Of a stretch of 11,352 bases of DNA, positions 599 through 9,580 are shown one piece after another. The DNA is from a virus (taxonomy: Duplodnaviria > Heunggongvirae > Uroviricota > Caudoviricetes): the IMG/VR virus record IMGVR_UViG_2585427742_000014. The stretch is one strand, 5' to 3'. How positions within the stretch are numbered: position 1 is the first letter of the stretch; each line of letters opens with the position of its first letter. A program made the position numbers and the translations under genes. The notes under the pieces were generated by a model. It was not told where the DNA came from. It worked only from the letters and a program-made list of their open reading frames with translations, and ran no database searches.

Positions 599-603
599 AC
601 TCG

Positions 604-885
604 TTAACGCCGTAACCGCTCCGGCTTCTTCCAGTGGTACGTAATTTTCTCCGTTTCCCGATACAGTGCCACGCGGCGATTGTAGGCCAGCATTTCAAGA
701 ACGCGGATCCGTATGTTGCGCATATCCACATCATTAAGCTGGATACCATCACGGCGCATCACCTCAGCAACCACACGCGCGTAATTTTCGGCGGTCACGC
801 TGTCCGGCTGCGTGGCCTGTTCGTCATGCTGCTGGCTGATTCCGGTAACGCGGCGGATTAATCCCAGTAGTTCGGCTTCTGTCAT
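604..885 (-). CDS. Hypothetical protein (~93 aa); credible distal part of the 159-aa ORF 604..1083
   Basis: Internal ATG at 885 preceded by a G-rich stretch. The upstream part of the long ORF runs across the cos site and is low-complexity (FCACPVHGKH...), so the start was trimmed. No family recognised. Confidence 0.4.
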   Translation of the reverse strand: MTEAELLGLIRRVTGISQQHDEQATQPDSVTAENYARVVAEVMRRDGIQLNDVDMRNIRIRVLEMLAYNRRVALYRETEKITYHWKKPERLRR

Positions 886-920
886 TGTGCCCCCATCGCT
901 CTGATAGTCTGGTGTCGTCG

Positions 921-1100
921 GGTCCTTCCTGGAATTATGGCCCGTTACGGGGCGGCGACCTCGCGCGTTTTCACTATTTATGAAAATTTTTCGGGATCCA
1001 TGTCCGGTTTCTCTGCAAGTTAACCATATGAAAAATATAAAAACATGCTTTCCATGAACCGGACATGCGCAAAAAACAGACACTAAAACCGGACATCGAA
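921..1100 (+). other. cos-1: lambda-type cohesive-end site in plus orientation (cosQ-like flank, cosN 950-961 GGGCGGCGACCT, cosB-like region with three R-like elements and an AT-rich spacer)
   Basis: CGTTACG|GGGCGGCGACCT|CGCGCGTTTTCACTATTTATGAAAATTTTTCGG matches the phage lambda cos junction as I recall it (GGTTACG|GGGCGGCGACCT|CGCGGGTTTTCGCTATTTATGAAAATTTTCCGG). Downstream: ATGTCCGGTT at 1000-1009, AT-rich 1011-1050, AACCGGACAT at 1057-1066 and 1087-1096. Confidence 0.75.
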
Positions 1101-1164
1101 CCAGTTAACCGAAAGTGTGCACAAATCACATGCATTGCTGCGAGTGATTAACAAGTTATCGGCT

Positions 1165-1599
1165 TTACTGTTCTGTATCGGCTGATTGCTCCATGCTGGC
1201 ACGGCGAACGCTTATGGCATGACGCCACCCAGCCAGAAAGCCAGCCATTTTATTTCGTGCCTTGCTCACATCTTCCGGTGAATAGCCGTAAATCTGCAAA
1301 CCTTCATCAAATCGATGTTCTGTTTCTTCACTGGAGTACTCGTCACGCTCAGATGAAAGCAGCCTGGCAAACATAATTTTTTCCAGCGCACTGGTTTCTA
1401 CGTGATATCTGATGGTCTCAAGACGGCTTTTACCTGAAGACCAAAGCAATGTATGCCCGATGTGATAACCGCCAGACTTTCCGCGATCCGCATTAAGATA
1501 CGGCATCCCCTGTTTGGTCCATGCGCGAATAGTGGTTCTGTTAACCTTGAAATGTTCAGCTATTTCCTGCTGACTTACAAAACAAGCTTTATCAATCAT
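1165..1599 (-). CDS. Nu1-like small-terminase DNA-binding protein with a divergent C-terminus; candidate packaging-redirection factor (Rpp-like) or island TerS
   Basis: N-terminus VSQQEIAEHFKVNRTTIRAWTKQGMPYL resembles the winged-HTH of lambda gpNu1 (KKQLADIFGASIRTIQNWQEQGMPVL, from memory). At 144 aa it is shorter than Nu1 and the C-terminal half is unrelated. A cos site lies ~90 bp upstream. Confidence 0.7.
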   Translation of the reverse strand: MIDKACFVSQQEIAEHFKVNRTTIRAWTKQGMPYLNADRGKSGGYHIGHTLLWSSGKSRLETIRYHVETSALEKIMFARLLSSERDEYSSEETEHRFDEGLQIYGYSPEDVSKARNKMAGFLAGWRHAISVRRASMEQSADTEQ

Positions 1600-1733
1600 A
1601 ATGTTACCTTAACTGCATGGTTAAATATTAATCAAGTGGTGGTGGTGTCACCTTCACGGAAAAACGTCATAAATAGCGAAAACCCGCGAGGTCGCCGCCC
1701 CGTAACGGGTCCATAATTCCAGGAAGGACCCGT
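1600..1733 (-). other. cos-2: lambda-type cos site in minus orientation (cosN at 1689-1700 as reverse complement), in the lambda-like position immediately upstream of the Nu1-like gene
   Basis: Minus strand reads ACGGGTCCTTCCTGGAATTATGGACCCGTTACG|GGGCGGCGACCT|CGCGGGTTTTCGCTATTTATGACGTTTTTCCGTGAAGG. The 22 nt after cosN are identical to lambda as recalled, and CGTTTTTCCGTG resembles lambda R3. Confidence 0.75.
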
Positions 1734-1755
1734 AAAAAAGCCGGATTTCTCCGGC
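1734..1755 (-). terminator. Rho-independent terminator for the capsid operon (GCCGGA-TTTC-TCCGGC stem-loop followed by T6 on the minus strand)
   Basis: Hairpin 1740-1755 and A6 at 1734-1739 (T6 on the minus strand), 7 nt past the stop of the 1762..2175 ORF. Confidence 0.6.
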
Positions 1756-1761
1756 CTTGTC

Positions 1762-2175
1762 TCAGATGGTTTTCAGTATGCGATCGATGTCGCCGTCATC
1801 GCCCTGGTTTCTGCCATCGTATGCCATGCCAGCTGATACGGCTTGCGGGCTGTGCATGTCCATAAAGTTTTCAAAGGCTGCGGTAAGTTCCGGCGCAACC
1901 TTCGGACGTTCCTGCTCTATGGTCATGCTAAGGATGCTTTTAGCCGTACCAACATCGATACAAGGCACGTTTGCCATTGCACGCAACAGCGGCTGATAGT
2001 CTTTATGCTCATGAAGCGCCATAATCGCATCAGCGCGCGGCTTGTCCTGCTCTTCCAGTTTGTTTAGTTGATATACGGCCTCATAGGTTGATAAACCTCT
2101 GTCAGCCATTGCCCGCGCTTCGGCTTTAAATTTACTCGCCAGCGGTAGCGTCATGATGCTTTCATTCGTTGCCAT
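1762..2175 (-). CDS. Hypothetical protein (137 aa), last gene of the capsid operon
   Basis: ORF track; sits 12 nt downstream of the gpD-like gene and just before the terminator. No family recognised. Confidence 0.55.
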   Translation of the reverse strand: MATNESIMTLPLASKFKAEARAMADRGLSTYEAVYQLNKLEEQDKPRADAIMALHEHKDYQPLLRAMANVPCIDVGTAKSILSMTIEQERPKVAPELTAAFENFMDMHSPQAVSAGMAYDGRNQGDDGDIDRILKTI

Positions 2176-2187
2176 CGTTCCCCCTGC

Positions 2188-2523
2188 TTATCGGGCCAGC
2201 GGCTGAACGGATACGCCGGAACCCGCAAAGGCGGCGCATTTTTTCGCATCGGTGTCGACGCTCTCAGGCCAGTTAACGGCGGCAATATTGAATATCCCCG
2301 TCTTGTAACACTGTGCTGATTTCTGCTTTGACGTGTCCACAGGGTACGAGGTCAGATAAACAGCCTTGCCAGATTCCTTACCATCCCACGGCTTAAACTC
2401 GCCATTGTCCGCCAGCATCAGCGGGGTAAATTCCTGAATAACGCCAGCATCAGCGGCAAAATGTACCAGCGTCGTGGCGACCTGCTGACTGCCTGCAAAT
2501 AACTCAATGTATGGAGTGTCCAT
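2188..2523 (-). CDS. Head decoration protein, lambda gpD-like
   Basis: 111 aa; TPLMLADNGEFKPWDGKESGKAV...CYKTGIFNIAAVNWPESVDTDAKKCAAFAGSGVSVQ parallels lambda gpD (TPLMLDTSSRKLVAWDG...[36 protein letters not shown], from memory). Lies directly downstream of the capsid gene. Confidence 0.8.
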   Translation of the reverse strand: MDTPYIELFAGSQQVATTLVHFAADAGVIQEFTPLMLADNGEFKPWDGKESGKAVYLTSYPVDTSKQKSAQCYKTGIFNIAAVNWPESVDTDAKKCAAFAGSGVSVQPLAR

Positions 2524-2534
2524 AGAATCCCCCG

Positions 2535-3590
2535 TTAACCAATTTTGACGGTAACAAATTTGCGAATATCTGCCGGAACCGGCTGCGGTGCGCTGTGCGT
2601 CTGCACGTACTCAATCGCCGGATCGCCGTCCTCAATCCAGTTTTTCGGGTAAAACATGTTTTGCGTTGCGCCCGTTCTTACTGCGTCCTGATCCATAATC
2701 GCACCATAGGCCACCAGCCCTTTATTGTTGGTGTTGCCCAGAACCAGCAAATCAGGCTCAAGGAAATATTTTTCTGTGCCGTCGCTGTCAGTGTATTTGC
2801 CGGAATAGACGATAAGGGCAATATCGCCCAGATAGCCTTTAAAGCTCACCACTTCGCCCAGGTTTTTACAGGCCAGCTCTGCGGCGGACTCTGAACCACG
2901 GGAAAGATCGTACAGCTCACGGAATTTTTTAAAGCTGCGTAACGTTCGCCATACCTCAGCGCCCATAATCATGACGTTTGCGGGGCAACCAGCCTGATCA
3001 GCATAAAGCTCGATGTCATAGATTGGGTCGTGCATGTCTTTATCCTGCTCGGACCATTTTTTACCCTTGGCCTGCTCTATGATGCAGTTTTCCGGTATTT
3101 TCCAGTCGATTTCATAGCGTTCTATGCCTTCGCCCTCAATGATGTTTTTTCCGGTCGTTACCGCATTCACCGCCAGCCATTCCACGCGTGCCTTAATGGC
3201 GTTTATCTGGCGGCGCATGTTGCCAGTAATCAGGCGCATACGGCGATAGGTAGGGTCGTTAAGCTGTGCCGGATCTTCTCCAGCCATGCGCATGATGGTT
3301 TTCGTTGGATCGATTTCGTGCTTTGGCTTCATGTAGCCAGGTTTGATTGTGCTGGTTTCGTACCCTTTATCGCGCTGAACCTGGCTACCCACCATAGGCG
3401 AACAAAACGCCGACATGGTGACTTCTTCAATGTCCAGGGTATCCAGCATGATGTTTTGCGTGCTGAATGTCGCCACGTTCGGGAAAAACAGCGTGGTAAA
3501 CAGAGGGCTGAATTTAAAATCCGCAATATCCCCGCGATTCAGGTACATGAAAAGCTGGTTAGTGTTAAGTGCCGTTGCTTTGCCTGCCAT
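2535..3590 (-). CDS. Major capsid protein, lambda gpE family
   Basis: 351 aa; shared motifs with lambda gpE as recalled: DFKFSPLF / KFKFDPLF, PGYMKPKHEI / PGYVKPKHEV, DPTYRRMRLI / DPAYRRRRII, YPKNWIEDGDPAIEY / YPKNWVTTGDPAREF. GGGGG-type RBS 6 nt upstream. Confidence 0.9.
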   Translation of the reverse strand: MAGKATALNTNQLFMYLNRGDIADFKFSPLFTTLFFPNVATFSTQNIMLDTLDIEEVTMSAFCSPMVGSQVQRDKGYETSTIKPGYMKPKHEIDPTKTIMRMAGEDPAQLNDPTYRRMRLITGNMRRQINAIKARVEWLAVNAVTTGKNIIEGEGIERYEIDWKIPENCIIEQAKGKKWSEQDKDMHDPIYDIELYADQAGCPANVMIMGAEVWRTLRSFKKFRELYDLSRGSESAAELACKNLGEVVSFKGYLGDIALIVYSGKYTDSDGTEKYFLEPDLLVLGNTNNKGLVAYGAIMDQDAVRTGATQNMFYPKNWIEDGDPAIEYVQTHSAPQPVPADIRKFVTVKIG

Positions 3591-3796
3591 TATTCACCCC
3601 CATAATTTTTATGCATCCCAAGCGCCGCAAGTAAATAAGAGCGTACAAGTGAACCTATCGACGGCTCCGGCGTCATCAGCGGATCCAGTCCAGCCGCCAC
3701 GCCAGCCTCATAGTTTTTTTTGTGGCGCTGCTTGAGCACCTCCACGATTTCGGGGCTTATGTACACCGAAACACCGCCTTTTTTCTCTTCAGCCAT
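3590..3796 (-). CDS. Hypothetical small protein (68 aa), first gene of the capsid operon, translationally coupled to the capsid gene
   Basis: Stop overlaps the capsid ATG (TAATG); AGAGGAA-type RBS upstream. No family recognised. Confidence 0.5.
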   Translation of the reverse strand: MAEEKKGGVSVYISPEIVEVLKQRHKKNYEAGVAAGLDPLMTPEPSIGSLVRSYLLAALGMHKNYGGE

Positions 3797-3961
3797 AGTA
3801 AGAAATTCCTCTTCGACTTAAAAAATCATAACTGGATGTTCATCCAGCTCTGATTATAATCATGATTGCATTTTGTGCAATGATATTGAGTTGTGTTGCA
3901 AATTATGAAATGATGATCCCGATCATGTGTGTCAGTGCACCAAAAAGCCTCATATGCAAAA

Positions 3962-3998
3962 GCCCGATAAGCCACCTCTGACCTTATCGGGCTTTTTT
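3962..3998 (+). terminator. Terminator-like hairpin (GCCCGATAAG / CTTATCGGGC stem, 11-nt loop, T6 on the plus strand) in the capsid-operon upstream region
   Basis: 10-bp perfect stem at 3962-3971 / 3983-3992 followed by TTTTTT at 3993-3998. No plus-strand ORF lies upstream; only 4 U would follow on the minus strand. Confidence 0.5.
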
Positions 3999-4099
3999 AT
4001 CTGCCTGCAAAGATGTCGAACAAAAATTAACCACAACCATCATCTTTTTTGCATCAAAACAATTAAAAACAATAAATTACGCTCATGATGATGATGACG

Positions 4100-4173
4100 A
4101 TAAAATCACAAAAATGCGCTTTTTTCCGCGCCTCCCGCCCCGTGTTCAGCCCCCCCCCGCCAGGAGGACCCGT
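4100..4173 (-). other. Degenerate cos-like remnant (cosQ-like GGACCCGT flank plus ACGGGGCGG, no intact cosN)
   Basis: Minus strand reads CGGGTCCTCCTGGCGGGGGGGGGCTGAACACGGGGCGGGAGGCGCGGAAAAAAGCGCATTTTTGTGA, versus cos-2 CGGGTCCTTCCTGG...ACGGGGCGGCGACCTCGCGGGTTTTCGCTATTTATGA. Partial similarity only. Confidence 0.3.
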
Positions 4174-7924: not shown

Positions 7925-8382
7925 AAGCCTACCCCCTGACGAATACGGGCGACAAAAATCAGATGTGCGTGCGGCAGCTGTGCACGTGCTTCGCGCTCAG
8001 TGGCAGCGGTAACGGTGAATATTGCAATGCTGTCTGTCAGGCACTGCATAAAGCGCCAGACAAAATAAGGGCGTGCGGATACAGCCATGTGAAAGGCTCC
8101 CAGATGAATTTTAAGGAGTCTCGCTACTACGCTGTCAAACATGGTGGCGAGACGTAACAGGGTTGACAGACTGGTCATCTGGAAACCAGCGAGCACAAAG
8201 GCTCCCCCGTTACGCCCCGCCATAATGCGGGTATGGGTAGGTTTACGGACACAAAAAAACCGCTTATCGGATGTGGGCGGCTGTCCGCCAGATGTATTCA
8301 GGCTGTCAAACCCGGTCGCCATGTGGGCGACGGGGGAAGCATACAGCCCCGTGATAATTTTTTGCAAGCGGTTTTTACGCAT
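7921..8382 (-). CDS. Small protein, paralog 1, with a C-terminal motif shared with 8375..8578 (Icd-like/Ash-like small-protein type; start uncertain, alternative ATG at 8088)
   Basis: C-terminus YFVWRF...TAATEREARAQLPHAHLIFVARIRQG parallels the downstream paralog. The ATG at 8382 overlaps the upstream stop (ATGCGTAA) with AGGGG 7 nt upstream; the alternative ATG at 8088 has GGAG 8 nt upstream. Confidence 0.45.
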   Translation of the reverse strand: MRKNRLQKIITGLYASPVAHMATGFDSLNTSGGQPPTSDKRFFCVRKPTHTRIMAGRNGGAFVLAGFQMTSLSTLLRLATMFDSVVARLLKIHLGAFHMAVSARPYFVWRFMQCLTDSIAIFTVTAATEREARAQLPHAHLIFVARIRQGVGL

Positions 8383-8578
8383 GATATGACCCCTGGCGAA
8401 TACGGGCAGCGAATACCATCACGCAGCCAGCCGGAGATTGCTGACGCGCTTCCTGTTCGCTGGTGGCCTCGATGGTAATCACGCGCGGTTGTGCCGTGCT
8501 CAGGGCGATAAAACGCCAGATGTATTTATTCAGGTTGTACGAGTCCCGCCCTTGCGGGTGTCTGGTATAATTTCTCAT
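8375..8578 (-). CDS. Small protein, paralog 2 (67 aa), Icd-like/Ash-like type
   Basis: MRNYTRHPQGRDSYNLNKYIWRF...EATSEQEARQQSPAGCVMVFAARIRQG; GAGG 5 nt upstream of the ATG at 8578. This is the 3' end of the otherwise implausible 382-aa ORF. Family assignment is from memory and unverified. Confidence 0.5.
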   Translation of the reverse strand: MRNYTRHPQGRDSYNLNKYIWRFIALSTAQPRVITIEATSEQEARQQSPAGCVMVFAARIRQGSYHA

Positions 8579-8650
8579 AGCTACCTCGATACTTTCGCTA
8601 TCGTTGGTGGTTAGAAGCCCTGCATGTGTTCCAGCACTGCGGGGCTTTGC

Positions 8651-8755
8651 TGTACATACACCACAATCATTGGTGTGTGTACAGATTAAATTTAAGTGCG
8701 CTACAGTGTCAAGTGTTTTATTTACACACCTTTTGGTGTAATGTATGCACACCTC
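8651..8755. promoter_or_regulatory. Divergent promoter/operator region with inverted repeats built on CACACC / GGTGTG
   Basis: GTACATACACCA (8652-8663) and TGGTGTGTGTAC (8671-8682) form a 12-bp inverted repeat with one mismatch and a 7-bp spacer; further ACACACC / GGTGT / CACACC copies at 8724-8753. Lies between divergent genes starting at 8578 (minus) and 8775 (plus). Confidence 0.45.
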
Positions 8756-8774
8756 AAAATAACCGGACATTCTG

Positions 8775-9080
8775 ATGGCAACAGGAAATATCAACAGCAG
8801 ATCGCAAATGAAAAATATCCGCTTCCCCCATGATGTAATCGAGGAAATGGAAAATTCGAAAACGGAAGGGGAAACAATAGCCGCTTTCGTGATTACAGCC
8901 GTTCGCGGTGAGATCGCCCGCCGCCAGGCAGAAGGAAGCGGAGAAAATCCCCTGGTTTCTTCGCTCGATGCACTGGCGCAGGTGGAAAAAATCGGAGTCA
9001 AAGCAGCCGAGGAGATCGGGCAACTCATCACCGTCGCGCGTGAAGAACTCCAGCGTCGCAAGGCCAAAGAGCAGGAGTGA
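8775..9080 (+). CDS. Ribbon-helix-helix-like DNA-binding protein (101 aa; start uncertain)
   Basis: KNIRFPHDVIEEMENSKTEGETIAAFVITAVRGEIARR fits a beta-strand/helix/helix RHH pattern; non-repetitive charged composition. Weak SD at 8775. Confidence 0.55.
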   Translation: MATGNINSRSQMKNIRFPHDVIEEMENSKTEGETIAAFVITAVRGEIARRQAEGSGENPLVSSLDALAQVEKIGVKAAEEIGQLITVAREELQRRKAKEQE

Positions 9081-9137
9081 CCATCACCAGCGCCGTGGTG
9101 TAAGGTATTACGGCGCATTGCTATGCAGGACAACACA

Positions 9138-9311
9138 ATGACCGATAAAGAATTGACCAAAACATTATCACCGGCACGGAAAAGACGGCGCAGAAAGATA
9201 GAGCATGAATCAGAAAGATTCGCGCCATGTGCTTTTGCCCTTGAGCAATTCCTTAAAGAGTACAGGGAAAAGCGCTCATTGCAGGTATGGCAACGAACTG
9301 AACCAGACTGA
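9138..9311 (+). CDS. Small basic protein (57 aa from the ATG at 9138; the ORF starts at 9123)
   Basis: AGGA 7 nt upstream of the ATG at 9138; contains ARKRRRRK; followed by a strong terminator. Confidence 0.4.
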   Translation: MTDKELTKTLSPARKRRRRKIEHESERFAPCAFALEQFLKEYREKRSLQVWQRTEPD

Positions 9312-9406
9312 TTGCATTGCCCACCAGCCTGATAACGGCTATCATCCCCGTGCTTATGTTTGGGATCACACACACAAACGGCGCAGCGGGTTATCTGTTC
9401 AGAAAG

Positions 9407-9434
9407 GCGGCTCCATTTCGGGGCCGCTTTTTTT
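9407..9434 (+). terminator. Rho-independent terminator of the plus-strand RHH operon
   Basis: 8-bp stem GCGGCTCC / GGGGCCGC (one G-U pair), loop ATTTC, followed by T7 at 9428-9434. Confidence 0.7.
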
Positions 9435-9580
9435 ATACCTGAAAAACCCCAATTTTGTTGTTTTTCAGTTTCACCAGGGCGAACGAATCCCCGCCCACGT
9501 TCTGGCGTATATTCAATCTTCATGGTTATAGCTCTGTGTTCAGATGATTGATGTGTGGCGGCTGCGTGCCGCCAGCGTGA

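Follow-up and report, generated by a model that had tools for sequence, protein, structure and literature searches.

A repeat array in the second cos site of an EcCICFT073-like island resembles the cosB of PhiR12-type lambdoid phages

EcCICFT073 is an E. coli satellite, a phage-inducible chromosomal island (PICI), with two cos sites. Both of them support transfer of the island and deletion of the two together abolishes it; cos1 is required for transfer by lambda and phage 80 (PMC6092414). The redirecting phage packaging protein RppA raises the transfer of a plasmid carrying cos1 (PMC6739421), and when cosB segments were swapped only the cosB of cos1 gave RppA-stimulated transfer (PMC6739421 Fig. 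6B). Phage 80 supplied with the cos1 cosB, using primers that begin CCGTGAAGGTGACACCACCACC, becomes RppA-dependent (PMC6739421). A single element, 'R3-PICI', was later assigned to the cos that precedes rpp, at bp 48-65 (Murialdo and Feiss 2022, PMC9026076). The cosB of cos2 was called 'completely divergent', and no phage cosB was identified for it by the authors (Fillol-Salom et al. 2018, 2019). The present analysis concerns the window, an 11,352-nucleotide stretch of viral DNA (IMG/VR record IMGVR_UViG_2585427742_000014) that is a close relative of EcCICFT073, and in particular an array of three short repeats at positions 997-1098, within the counterpart of cos2. This array is very probably a phage-type cosB, on which the small terminase (TerS) of a phage would dock beside the nicking site, cosN; it belongs to the TerS class of PhiR12-type lambdoid phages. 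The lambda-like complex cosB is a well-known kind of element and the DNA of the array is that of published cos2, but the repeats were not remarked on by Fillol-Salom et al. or by Murialdo and Feiss. The literature searched contained no description of repeated R elements in cos2, of cos2 as the cosB belonging to a widespread class of prophages that has a TerS domain of its own and includes one in CFT073, or of the exchange of the array cassette among island relatives.

The repeat array and its phage counterpart

The 10-mer ATGTCCGGTT occurs exactly at 1000-1009, and its complement AACCGGACAT exactly at 1057-1066 and 1087-1096, which are the coordinates and orientations reported in a preliminary description of the window made from its letters alone; the two direct copies are, as reported there, 30 nt apart from start to start. 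All three copies extend to 11 nt, (C/G)ATGTCCGGTT, and the first two form an inverted pair whose 11-nt arms, CATGTCCGGTT / AACCGGACATG, are 100% complementary and lie 47 nt apart. The spacer between them (1010-1056) had been described as AT-rich and about 40 bp long; it is indeed AT-rich (70% A+T), but its length is 47 bp. A lambda-type cohesive end lies 50 bp to the left of the array, at 950-961. The description of the array as cosB-like was correct, and the cosN that it adjoins is genuine. Table 1 gives the coordinates of these and the related features.

Chance is excluded as the origin of the array. When the window was simulated 300 times with a first-order Markov model, no run showed any 10-mer three times within 100 nt, and matches with at most one mismatch number five in the whole window against an expectation of 0.71. 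A fourth exact AACCGGACAT at 8761-8770 lies inside an open reading frame of 382 aa (8375..9523, minus strand) with a C-terminal match to transcriptional repressors of phages. It was judged a chance match, its flanks being unlike those of the cos repeats; about 0.02 exact 10-mer matches are expected by chance. The region 880-1200 gave no Rfam match to a regulatory RNA, no promoter-like site and, as a possible terminator, one weak hairpin no better than those of shuffled sequences.

Positions 942-1096 are 97.4% identical to the lambdoid phages PhiR12_1, PhiR12_2, PhiR12_4 and PhiR12_5, and the phage homology stops at 1096. In PhiR12_1 the array follows cosN, and the 'terminase subunit Nu1' gene of the phage itself begins 48 bp beyond the third repeat. 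The protein encoded (PhiR12-type TerS, 169 residues) has a full-length match to PHROG 57 and a Nu1-like C-terminal half (Pfam PF07471), while its N-terminal DNA-binding region, VATQTEVARHLSLTDRQLRRLQKLPGAP, is unlike those of lambda, phage 21, N15 and RppA; no structural homologue was found by sequence search. This TerS is probably the cognate reader of the array. The unit of cos plus terS was present in 1141 of 5426 complete E. coli genomes (~21%), and a scan of IMG/VR with an exact pattern, from which the third repeat had been left out, returned at least 120 contigs. Among the matches listed, all arrays have the 47-nt spacing between R3 and R2, and of the 104 that were oriented by a lambda-type cosN, 92 precede a PhiR12-type TerS and four face rppA. 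The preliminary description had taken the R elements to be island-specific, a claim that is contradicted by the 97% identical array preceding the TerS gene in PhiR12-type phages and in more than 90 IMG/VR phage contigs. The third repeat is kept in nearly all phage and island copies, while the R2-R1 spacer and some of the I1 region vary. The same array stands behind at least four different cosN types, and therefore tracks the DNA-binding domain of TerS and not cosN. TerS variants that are only 61% identical overall keep the sequence T(D/E)RQLRRLQKLPGAP, and the candidate recognition helix of the protein is T(D/E)RQLRRLQK. Linkage to TerS, conservation of the third repeat, independence of cosN and retention of the helix together tie the array to the TerS domain as a specificity module. 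Species-representative genomes scanned for the array gave only 39 chance matches, of variable spacing and in unrelated taxa, so in that collection the array is not visible beyond the phages and islands of E. coli type. A literature search on PhiR12 returned nothing relevant.

An alignment of both island cos sites with those of PhiR12_1, phage 21 and lambda is colinear through cosQ, cosN, R3, the TAAC of I1, and R2. Counted from bp 1, the R3 core occupies bp 54-59 in lambda, 55-60 in phage 21 and 52-58 in the window and PhiR12_1 (plus strand in each), and the R2 core bp 114-119, 112-117 and 110-116, respectively (minus strand in each). The third element departs from this pattern: R1 lies at bp 155-160 on the plus strand in both lambda and phage 21, whereas the third repeat of the window and PhiR12_1 lies at bp 140-146 on the minus strand, 15 bp closer than R1 of lambda and in the opposite orientation. 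With the lambda cosB (R3-I1-R2-R1, read by gpNu1) the array thus shares an identical 12-nt cohesive end, near-equal distances to R3 and to an inverted R2, and an AT-rich spacer, but no R1 in the orientation of R3 is found near bp 155-160. The repeat also differs, being CATGTCCGGTT in place of the CGTTTCC of lambda, a distinction that the preliminary description had drawn correctly, and the island array is not followed directly by a cognate terS gene but faces the 3' end of rppA. A layout of R3, IHF site, R2 and R1 like that of lambda had been proposed; the lambda-like geometry holds for R3, the AT-rich spacer and the inverted R2, and fails for the third element, which is wrong for R1 in both position and orientation. 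In the phages this repeat is the left half of a near-palindrome, AAACCGGACATGACCGGTTT, the right half of which (CATGACCGGTT) occupies the lambda R1 position in plus orientation as a 1-mismatch element. The TAAC columns are invariant among lambda, phage 21, PhiR12_1 and both island cos sites, and in phage 21 they fall inside the annotated I1; a candidate IHF site that includes two mismatches to WATCAANNNNTTR, read by eye, may correspond to I1 in the window.

Table 1. Cos-related features of the window, with rppA
Feature	Position	Strand	Remarks
cosQ-like CGGGTCCTTCC of the array-bearing cos (published cos2)	918..929	+	aligns with cosQ of lambda, 21 and PhiR12_1
cosN cohesive end GGGCGGCGACCT of the array-bearing cos	950..961	+	identical to that of lambda
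R3-equivalent repeat CATGTCCGGTT	999..1009	+	core at bp 52-58 from the cohesive end
Candidate IHF (I1-like) site TAACCATATGAAA	1021..1033	+	putative; inside the 47-bp spacer
R2-equivalent repeat, CATGTCCGGTT on the minus strand	1057..1067	-	inverted relative to R3
Third repeat, GATGTCCGGTT on the minus strand	1087..1097	-	in R2 orientation, 30 nt from R2
Degenerate remnant CATCGAACCAGTT of a plus-oriented R1 half	1094..1106	+	from comparison with PhiR12_1 and the CFT073 potB prophage
rppA (redirecting phage packaging protein)	1165..1599	-	convergent with the array
CACCACCACCAC motif, Rpp-associated cosB element ('R3-PICI'), published cos1	1636..1647	-	conserved upstream of rpp
cosN of published cos1	1689..1700	-	cosQ at 1722-1731; inverted relative to the cos at 950

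Phage 21, whose cosB is read by gp1, has the same cosN as the array and the same spacing of R3, I1 and R2, and its R core is the most similar to that of the array (CATGTC-GG compared with CATGTCCGG). The annotated R boxes of phage 21 have the core C(A/G)TGTCGG, one base from CATGTCCGG, with different flanks, but the TerS DNA-binding domains of the two classes are unrelated in sequence (MKVNKKRLAEIF... and VATQTEVARHLSL...). The cos of 'phage 4', the natural helper in CFT073, is of the 21 type. Common cosQ and cosN sequences combined with distinct cosB-TerS specificity modules are likewise seen in the N15 and Monarch classes (Feiss et al. 2015). Identity of the array class with either of these was rejected because of differences in both the R3 sequence and the DNA-binding domain of TerS: N15 TerS aligns with PhiR12-type TerS in the C-terminal half only, and the N15 R3 is unrelated in sequence. 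The array appears to belong to a packaging-specificity class other than those of lambda (CGTTTCC), phage 21 (CATGTCGG) and N15.

The island, its two cos sites and the Rpp-linked element

Identity between the window and the CFT073 island is 95.8% across 603-3998 and 85-99% in the other modules, and it is 100% over the 203 bp at 962-1164. The cos2 of EcCICFT073 is the same element as the array-bearing cos and has an equal, inverted position downstream of rppA, whereas the island of the window appears to sit at another integration site. The product of the gene annotated here as rppA matches RppC (PDB 6HLK, E=4.5e-31), and its residues 1-50 are identical to those of the EcCICFT073 RppA printed in PMC6739421 Fig. 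S1. Inverted-repeat analysis recovered two cos repeats bracketing the gene, and the window also carries the primase-type replication gene and the integrase of the EcCICFT073 family of PICIs, these last two being recognised with the help of the annotation of the CFT073 counterpart. The sequence GGGTCCTYYC occurs only twice in the window, in the cosQ-like element of the array-bearing cos and, inverted, at 1722-1731. The published cos2, which reads '...TCGGGATCCATGTCCGGTTTCTCTGCAAGTTAACC...AACCGGACATGCGC...AACCGGACATCGAAC...' (PMC6739421 Fig. S1A), corresponds to window 915-1133, and its printed cohesive end matches the one at 950-961; the published cos1, '...CGCTATTTATGACGTTTTTCCGTGAAGGTGACACCACCACCACTTGATTAATA...ATGATTGATAAAGC' in the same figure, is the minus-strand cos at 1700, directly upstream of rppA. 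With bp 1 of cos1 at 1700 and the ATG of rppA at 1599, the start of rpp falls at about bp 102 from the cohesive end, as expected. The array-bearing site had been labelled 'cos-1' in the preliminary description, which is the reverse of the published numbering.

Rpp homologues and their loci were gathered for RppB, Klebsiella and Salmonella through the contigs encoding each homologue; an Rpp alignment search of species-representative genomes yielded no usable loci. In the RppA island of the window the CACCACCACCAC motif occupies about bp 53-66 of the cos preceding rpp, and it is also present in the RppB island of E. coli and in the Klebsiella and Salmonella Rpp islands. The second, inverted cos carries the CATGTCCGGTT array in the RppA island, has a different cosN and the pair TTCCGGTTTTTT / AAAAAACCGGAA around a perfect IHF consensus in the RppB island, and was not found within 2.5 kb in the Klebsiella and Salmonella islands. 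Since CACCACCACCAC occurs in all four Rpp lineages and the array does not, the element travelling with Rpp is CACCACCACCAC, and this motif also lies, according to the primers, in the fragment used for the phage-80 cosB chimera. The two cosB regions belong to the same island, follow the same kind of cosQ-cosN and lie at an equal distance from the cohesive end. The R3-PICI cosB, however, is a single element, ACACCACCACCAC, upstream of rpp and without repeated R sequences, is shared across genera together with Rpp, and is RppA-responsive in the published work; the array is downstream of rppA, convergent with it, and lacks CACCACCACCAC.

These comparisons bear directly on the model of the preliminary description, in which the repeats were a satellite-specific signal bound by RppA, the island's Nu1-like protein, either alone or as an RppA-TerS heterodimer. 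RppA does have a TerS-like winged helix-turn-helix, a TCCGGTTT core is common to the second cos of the RppA and RppB islands, and the published literature holds no binding assay on array DNA. Against this, the published cosB swaps and the phage-80 chimera (CCGTGAAGGTGACACCACCACC) place the RppA response, and hence RppA-TerS recognition, in the other cos only (PMC6739421), the cosB of cos2 giving none. The putative DNA-contacting residues of Rpp and the upstream CACCACCACCAC are both conserved across islands, whereas none of the Klebsiella, Salmonella and RppB islands has the array, which occurs mostly in phages without rpp and also in islands without rpp. The comparison of related islands that had been suggested as a check thus points to CACCACCACCAC as the companion of rpp. 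The model is very improbable overall, and for lambda-helped packaging it is already largely refuted.

Several other features of these islands were observed. In the published cos1 an IHF-like sequence, TTGATTAAT, follows immediately after CACCACCACCAC (window 1626-1642), with one mismatch to the consensus at 1630-1642, and it has conserved counterparts in the islands of RppB type (TTGATTAAT), of Klebsiella (TTGATTGAA) and of Salmonella (ATGATTAAA). In the second, inverted cos of the RppB island (contig L004, 3003-3079) a pair, CTTCCGGTTTTTT / AAAAAACCGGAAAT, flanks the perfect IHF consensus TAACAAATTGATT, and it has the TCCGGTTT core in common with the window repeats. A search for a phage counterpart of this site (the TTCCGGTTTTTT pair) gave one weak phage match, in the cosN region, and no IMG/VR match, and in E. 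coli genomes the site was found in island contexts only; the equation of a second cos with a phage cosB is, from these comparisons, demonstrated for the RppA type only. Three capsid-related genes lie on the minus strand of the window. Two of the products resemble lambda proteins, namely the major capsid protein gpE (2535..3590, PF03864) and the decoration protein gpD (2188..2523, PF02924); the third, of 137 aa (1762..2175), matches head maturation proteases (phrog_53) at their C-terminal, Nu3/scaffold-like end. All three also occur in the RppB, Klebsiella and Salmonella islands; EcCICFT073 was described as lacking capsid morphogenesis genes (Fillol-Salom et al. 2018). A third, degenerate cos-like site at 4090-4171 (minus strand) is in direct orientation with published cos1 and 2.4 kb upstream of it, and consists of a cosQ-like ACGGGTCCTCC, then ACGGGGCGGGAGGCGCGG, then CATCATCATCAT at the place where cos1 has CACCACCACCAC. 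It brackets the capsid module, and a similar site is seen in relatives without rpp, for example at 11130-11230 of contig L024.

Conservation and exchange among island relatives

Seven island copies were fetched by similarity and not by pattern (91-100% identity; the sequences are not independent of each other). Across these, none of the 30 repeat positions varies, compared with 12 of the 72 other positions in 997-1098 (Fisher one-sided p=0.011), and the R3 repeat in particular is invariant in all seven unselected sequences. Island relatives that lack rpp still keep the array. In one group of these (type b) the array-bearing cos is accompanied by an inverted cos with an N15 R3-like cosB (GGTTGTTGTTTAAT), so that such islands, without rpp, carry two different phage-type cosBs. 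In a second group (type c) the array-bearing cos is found between the p137 and p94 genes, and there is a different cos-like site in direct orientation 2.4 kb upstream. In one type c relative (L024, 13830-13910) the first 22 codons of a PhiR12-type terS (VATQTEVARHLSLTDRQLRRLQKL) directly follow the array and are fused to the region upstream of the p94 gene, which has the appearance of a clear recombination scar with a phage.

The N15-like partner cos of the islands without rpp is exemplified by contig L136 (1340-1424, minus strand; GAGGGGGTGGTTGTTGTTTAATTG compared with GAGGTTGTTGTTTAATCATTG of N15), and of rpp these islands retain only a short, inverted remnant of the 3' end. The segment of about 535 bp between the inverted cos sites occurs in both orientations relative to p137 and p94 among the relatives without rpp, one orientation being represented by L136 (also L028, L053, L103, L134 and L137) and the other by L138 (also L013, L020 and L039). 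The breakpoints fall within inverted cosQ-cosN repeats of about 72 bp; homologous recombination could produce such an inversion, and so could terminase if it cut both cos sites and the ends were then rejoined. A single orientation is seen in all ten of the rppA-bearing copies examined. An RppB-type island (L011, 347-1300) directly adjoins genes for gpA terminase (5'-truncated), head-tail joining and portal proteins, an arrangement that suggests recombination between island and prophage at cos.

Possible roles of the second cos

The reading towards which we lean, with modest confidence, is that the array is a captured phage cosB that serves the island as a functional, helper-specific signal and allows Rpp-independent packaging. 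On the mechanism established for lambda and phage 21 (de Beer 2002 and Sippy 2015, as represented in papers citing them), a dimer of PhiR12-type TerS would bind the inverted R3 and R2, joined through an IHF bend of the AT-rich spacer, and the third repeat would contribute extra affinity. TerS would then position TerL, which would nick cosN at 950-961, and translocation would proceed rightward from 950, away from cosQ; on a concatemer, packaging would stop at the next cos of the same orientation. The island would have gained the cosB by recombination with a PhiR12-type phage and kept it as the second cos (published cos2). The array-bearing cos would in this way offer Rpp-independent entry to helpers of the PhiR12 class, with published cos1 (CACCACCACCAC) serving the RppA-TerS hijack of helpers of lambda, 80 and 21 type.

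A potential helper of this kind is resident in CFT073 itself, where the potB prophage, about 27 kb from the island, encodes a TerS 100% identical to that of PhiR12_1. In its cosB (contig L140, 21520-22238) R3 is exact and the remaining two repeats carry one mismatch apiece (AACCGGGCAT and AGCCGGACAT), so that in this genome the island has three perfect repeats and the prophage two mutated ones. Co-residence was examined more widely with a chimeric query made of the rppA region and the 5' part of terS, as a direct cosB query undercounts prophages in megablast. A second matching locus was found in 40 of 53 genome records with an rppA island, against the baseline of ~21%, a count that ignores clonality, several of the records being of the same strain or clone. 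The identity of the second locus was confirmed for CFT073 and one other genome only, and the co-occurrence of island and PhiR12-type prophage is suggestive only.

Besides the clonality behind this count, several observations weigh against use of the array by the island. Deletion of cos2 raised the transfer of the island by lambda and 80 (PMC6092414), so an array-bearing cos can be neutral or costly, and the published assays all used lambda, phage 80 or phage 4, whose TerS proteins mismatch the array. The lack of a second cos within 2.5 kb in the Klebsiella and Salmonella Rpp islands indicates that it is dispensable for the family. The island of strain Ch1 (L135, 889-900) has a mutated cohesive end, GGGAGTCGAACC, beside an intact array, and no second locus is seen in the genome that is identical to the window. 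Within the array itself, the R3-R2 spacer when scanned for the IHF consensus gave no site with one mismatch or fewer, and the plus-oriented R1 half of the phages is degenerate in the island copy.

Some of the same evidence is what would be expected of a non-functional relic, in which the second cos and its cosB came from a co-resident PhiR12-type prophage by way of the shared cosQ-cosN and have no role in transfer. Identity of 97% to phages over non-coding DNA suggests a recent exchange, the homology ends abruptly at 1096, a relative carries the scar of the 5' end of terS, and the cosQ side resembles the other cos of the island, making the site a mosaic. The increased transfer by lambda and 80 after its deletion, and the absence of an array-bearing second cos from the Klebsiella and Salmonella Rpp islands, would also fit. 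A relic accounts less well for the three repeats that are invariant in diverged island copies while their neighbours vary, for the retention of the array in variants without rpp, and for the three perfect repeats of the CFT073 island, two of which are degenerate in the potB prophage. It is considered rather unlikely.

It is also conceivable, at a distinctly lower probability, that the array acts as a decoy, titrating PhiR12-type TerS or provoking unproductive cutting to the detriment of a competing prophage. PhiR12-type prophages are often in the same genome as the island, the array-bearing cos is inverted relative to the Rpp-dependent cos, its deletion raises transfer by non-cognate helpers, and the cost of shared specificity between co-resident lambda-like elements has been discussed by Feiss and colleagues (PMC4669245). 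A complete cosQ-cosN-cosB on a replicating concatemer should, however, be packaged and not just bound, the few sites per island copy would make a weak sink for TerS, and there is no evidence of interference with PhiR12-type phages.

Capture of a functional, helper-specific phage cosB would give the second cos of this model Gram-negative satellite a purpose, which has never been explained. The cosB of that cos, described as unrecognisable, is very probably the standard tripartite phage cosB of a very common, uncharacterised class of E. coli prophage. It probably adds a further lambda-like packaging specificity (R = CATGTCCGGTT with the TerS helix DRQLRRLQK) to those of lambda, 21 and N15, as used in studies of how terminases recognise DNA. 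The analysis also corrects the preliminary description by placing the Rpp-specific signal in the other cos. These points should be moderately interesting to those who study terminase recognition or phage satellites. Tentatively, they may extend to a strategy of two keys, in which one cos supports the Rpp hijack and the other, exchangeable, cos carries verbatim the cosB of another abundant prophage class (PhiR12 / CFT073-potB). If so, islands and phages would trade cosB cassettes through recombination at the cosQ-cosN that they share, with relatives carrying an N15-like or other second cosB, and the inverted cos pair would make the segment between them invertible, both isomers of which are seen in nature. 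The second cos would then permit direct packaging by helpers that may lie beyond the reach of the Rpp hijack, and PhiR12-type phages, including the potB prophage of CFT073, would have to be taken into account in the helper range of EcCICFT073-family islands.

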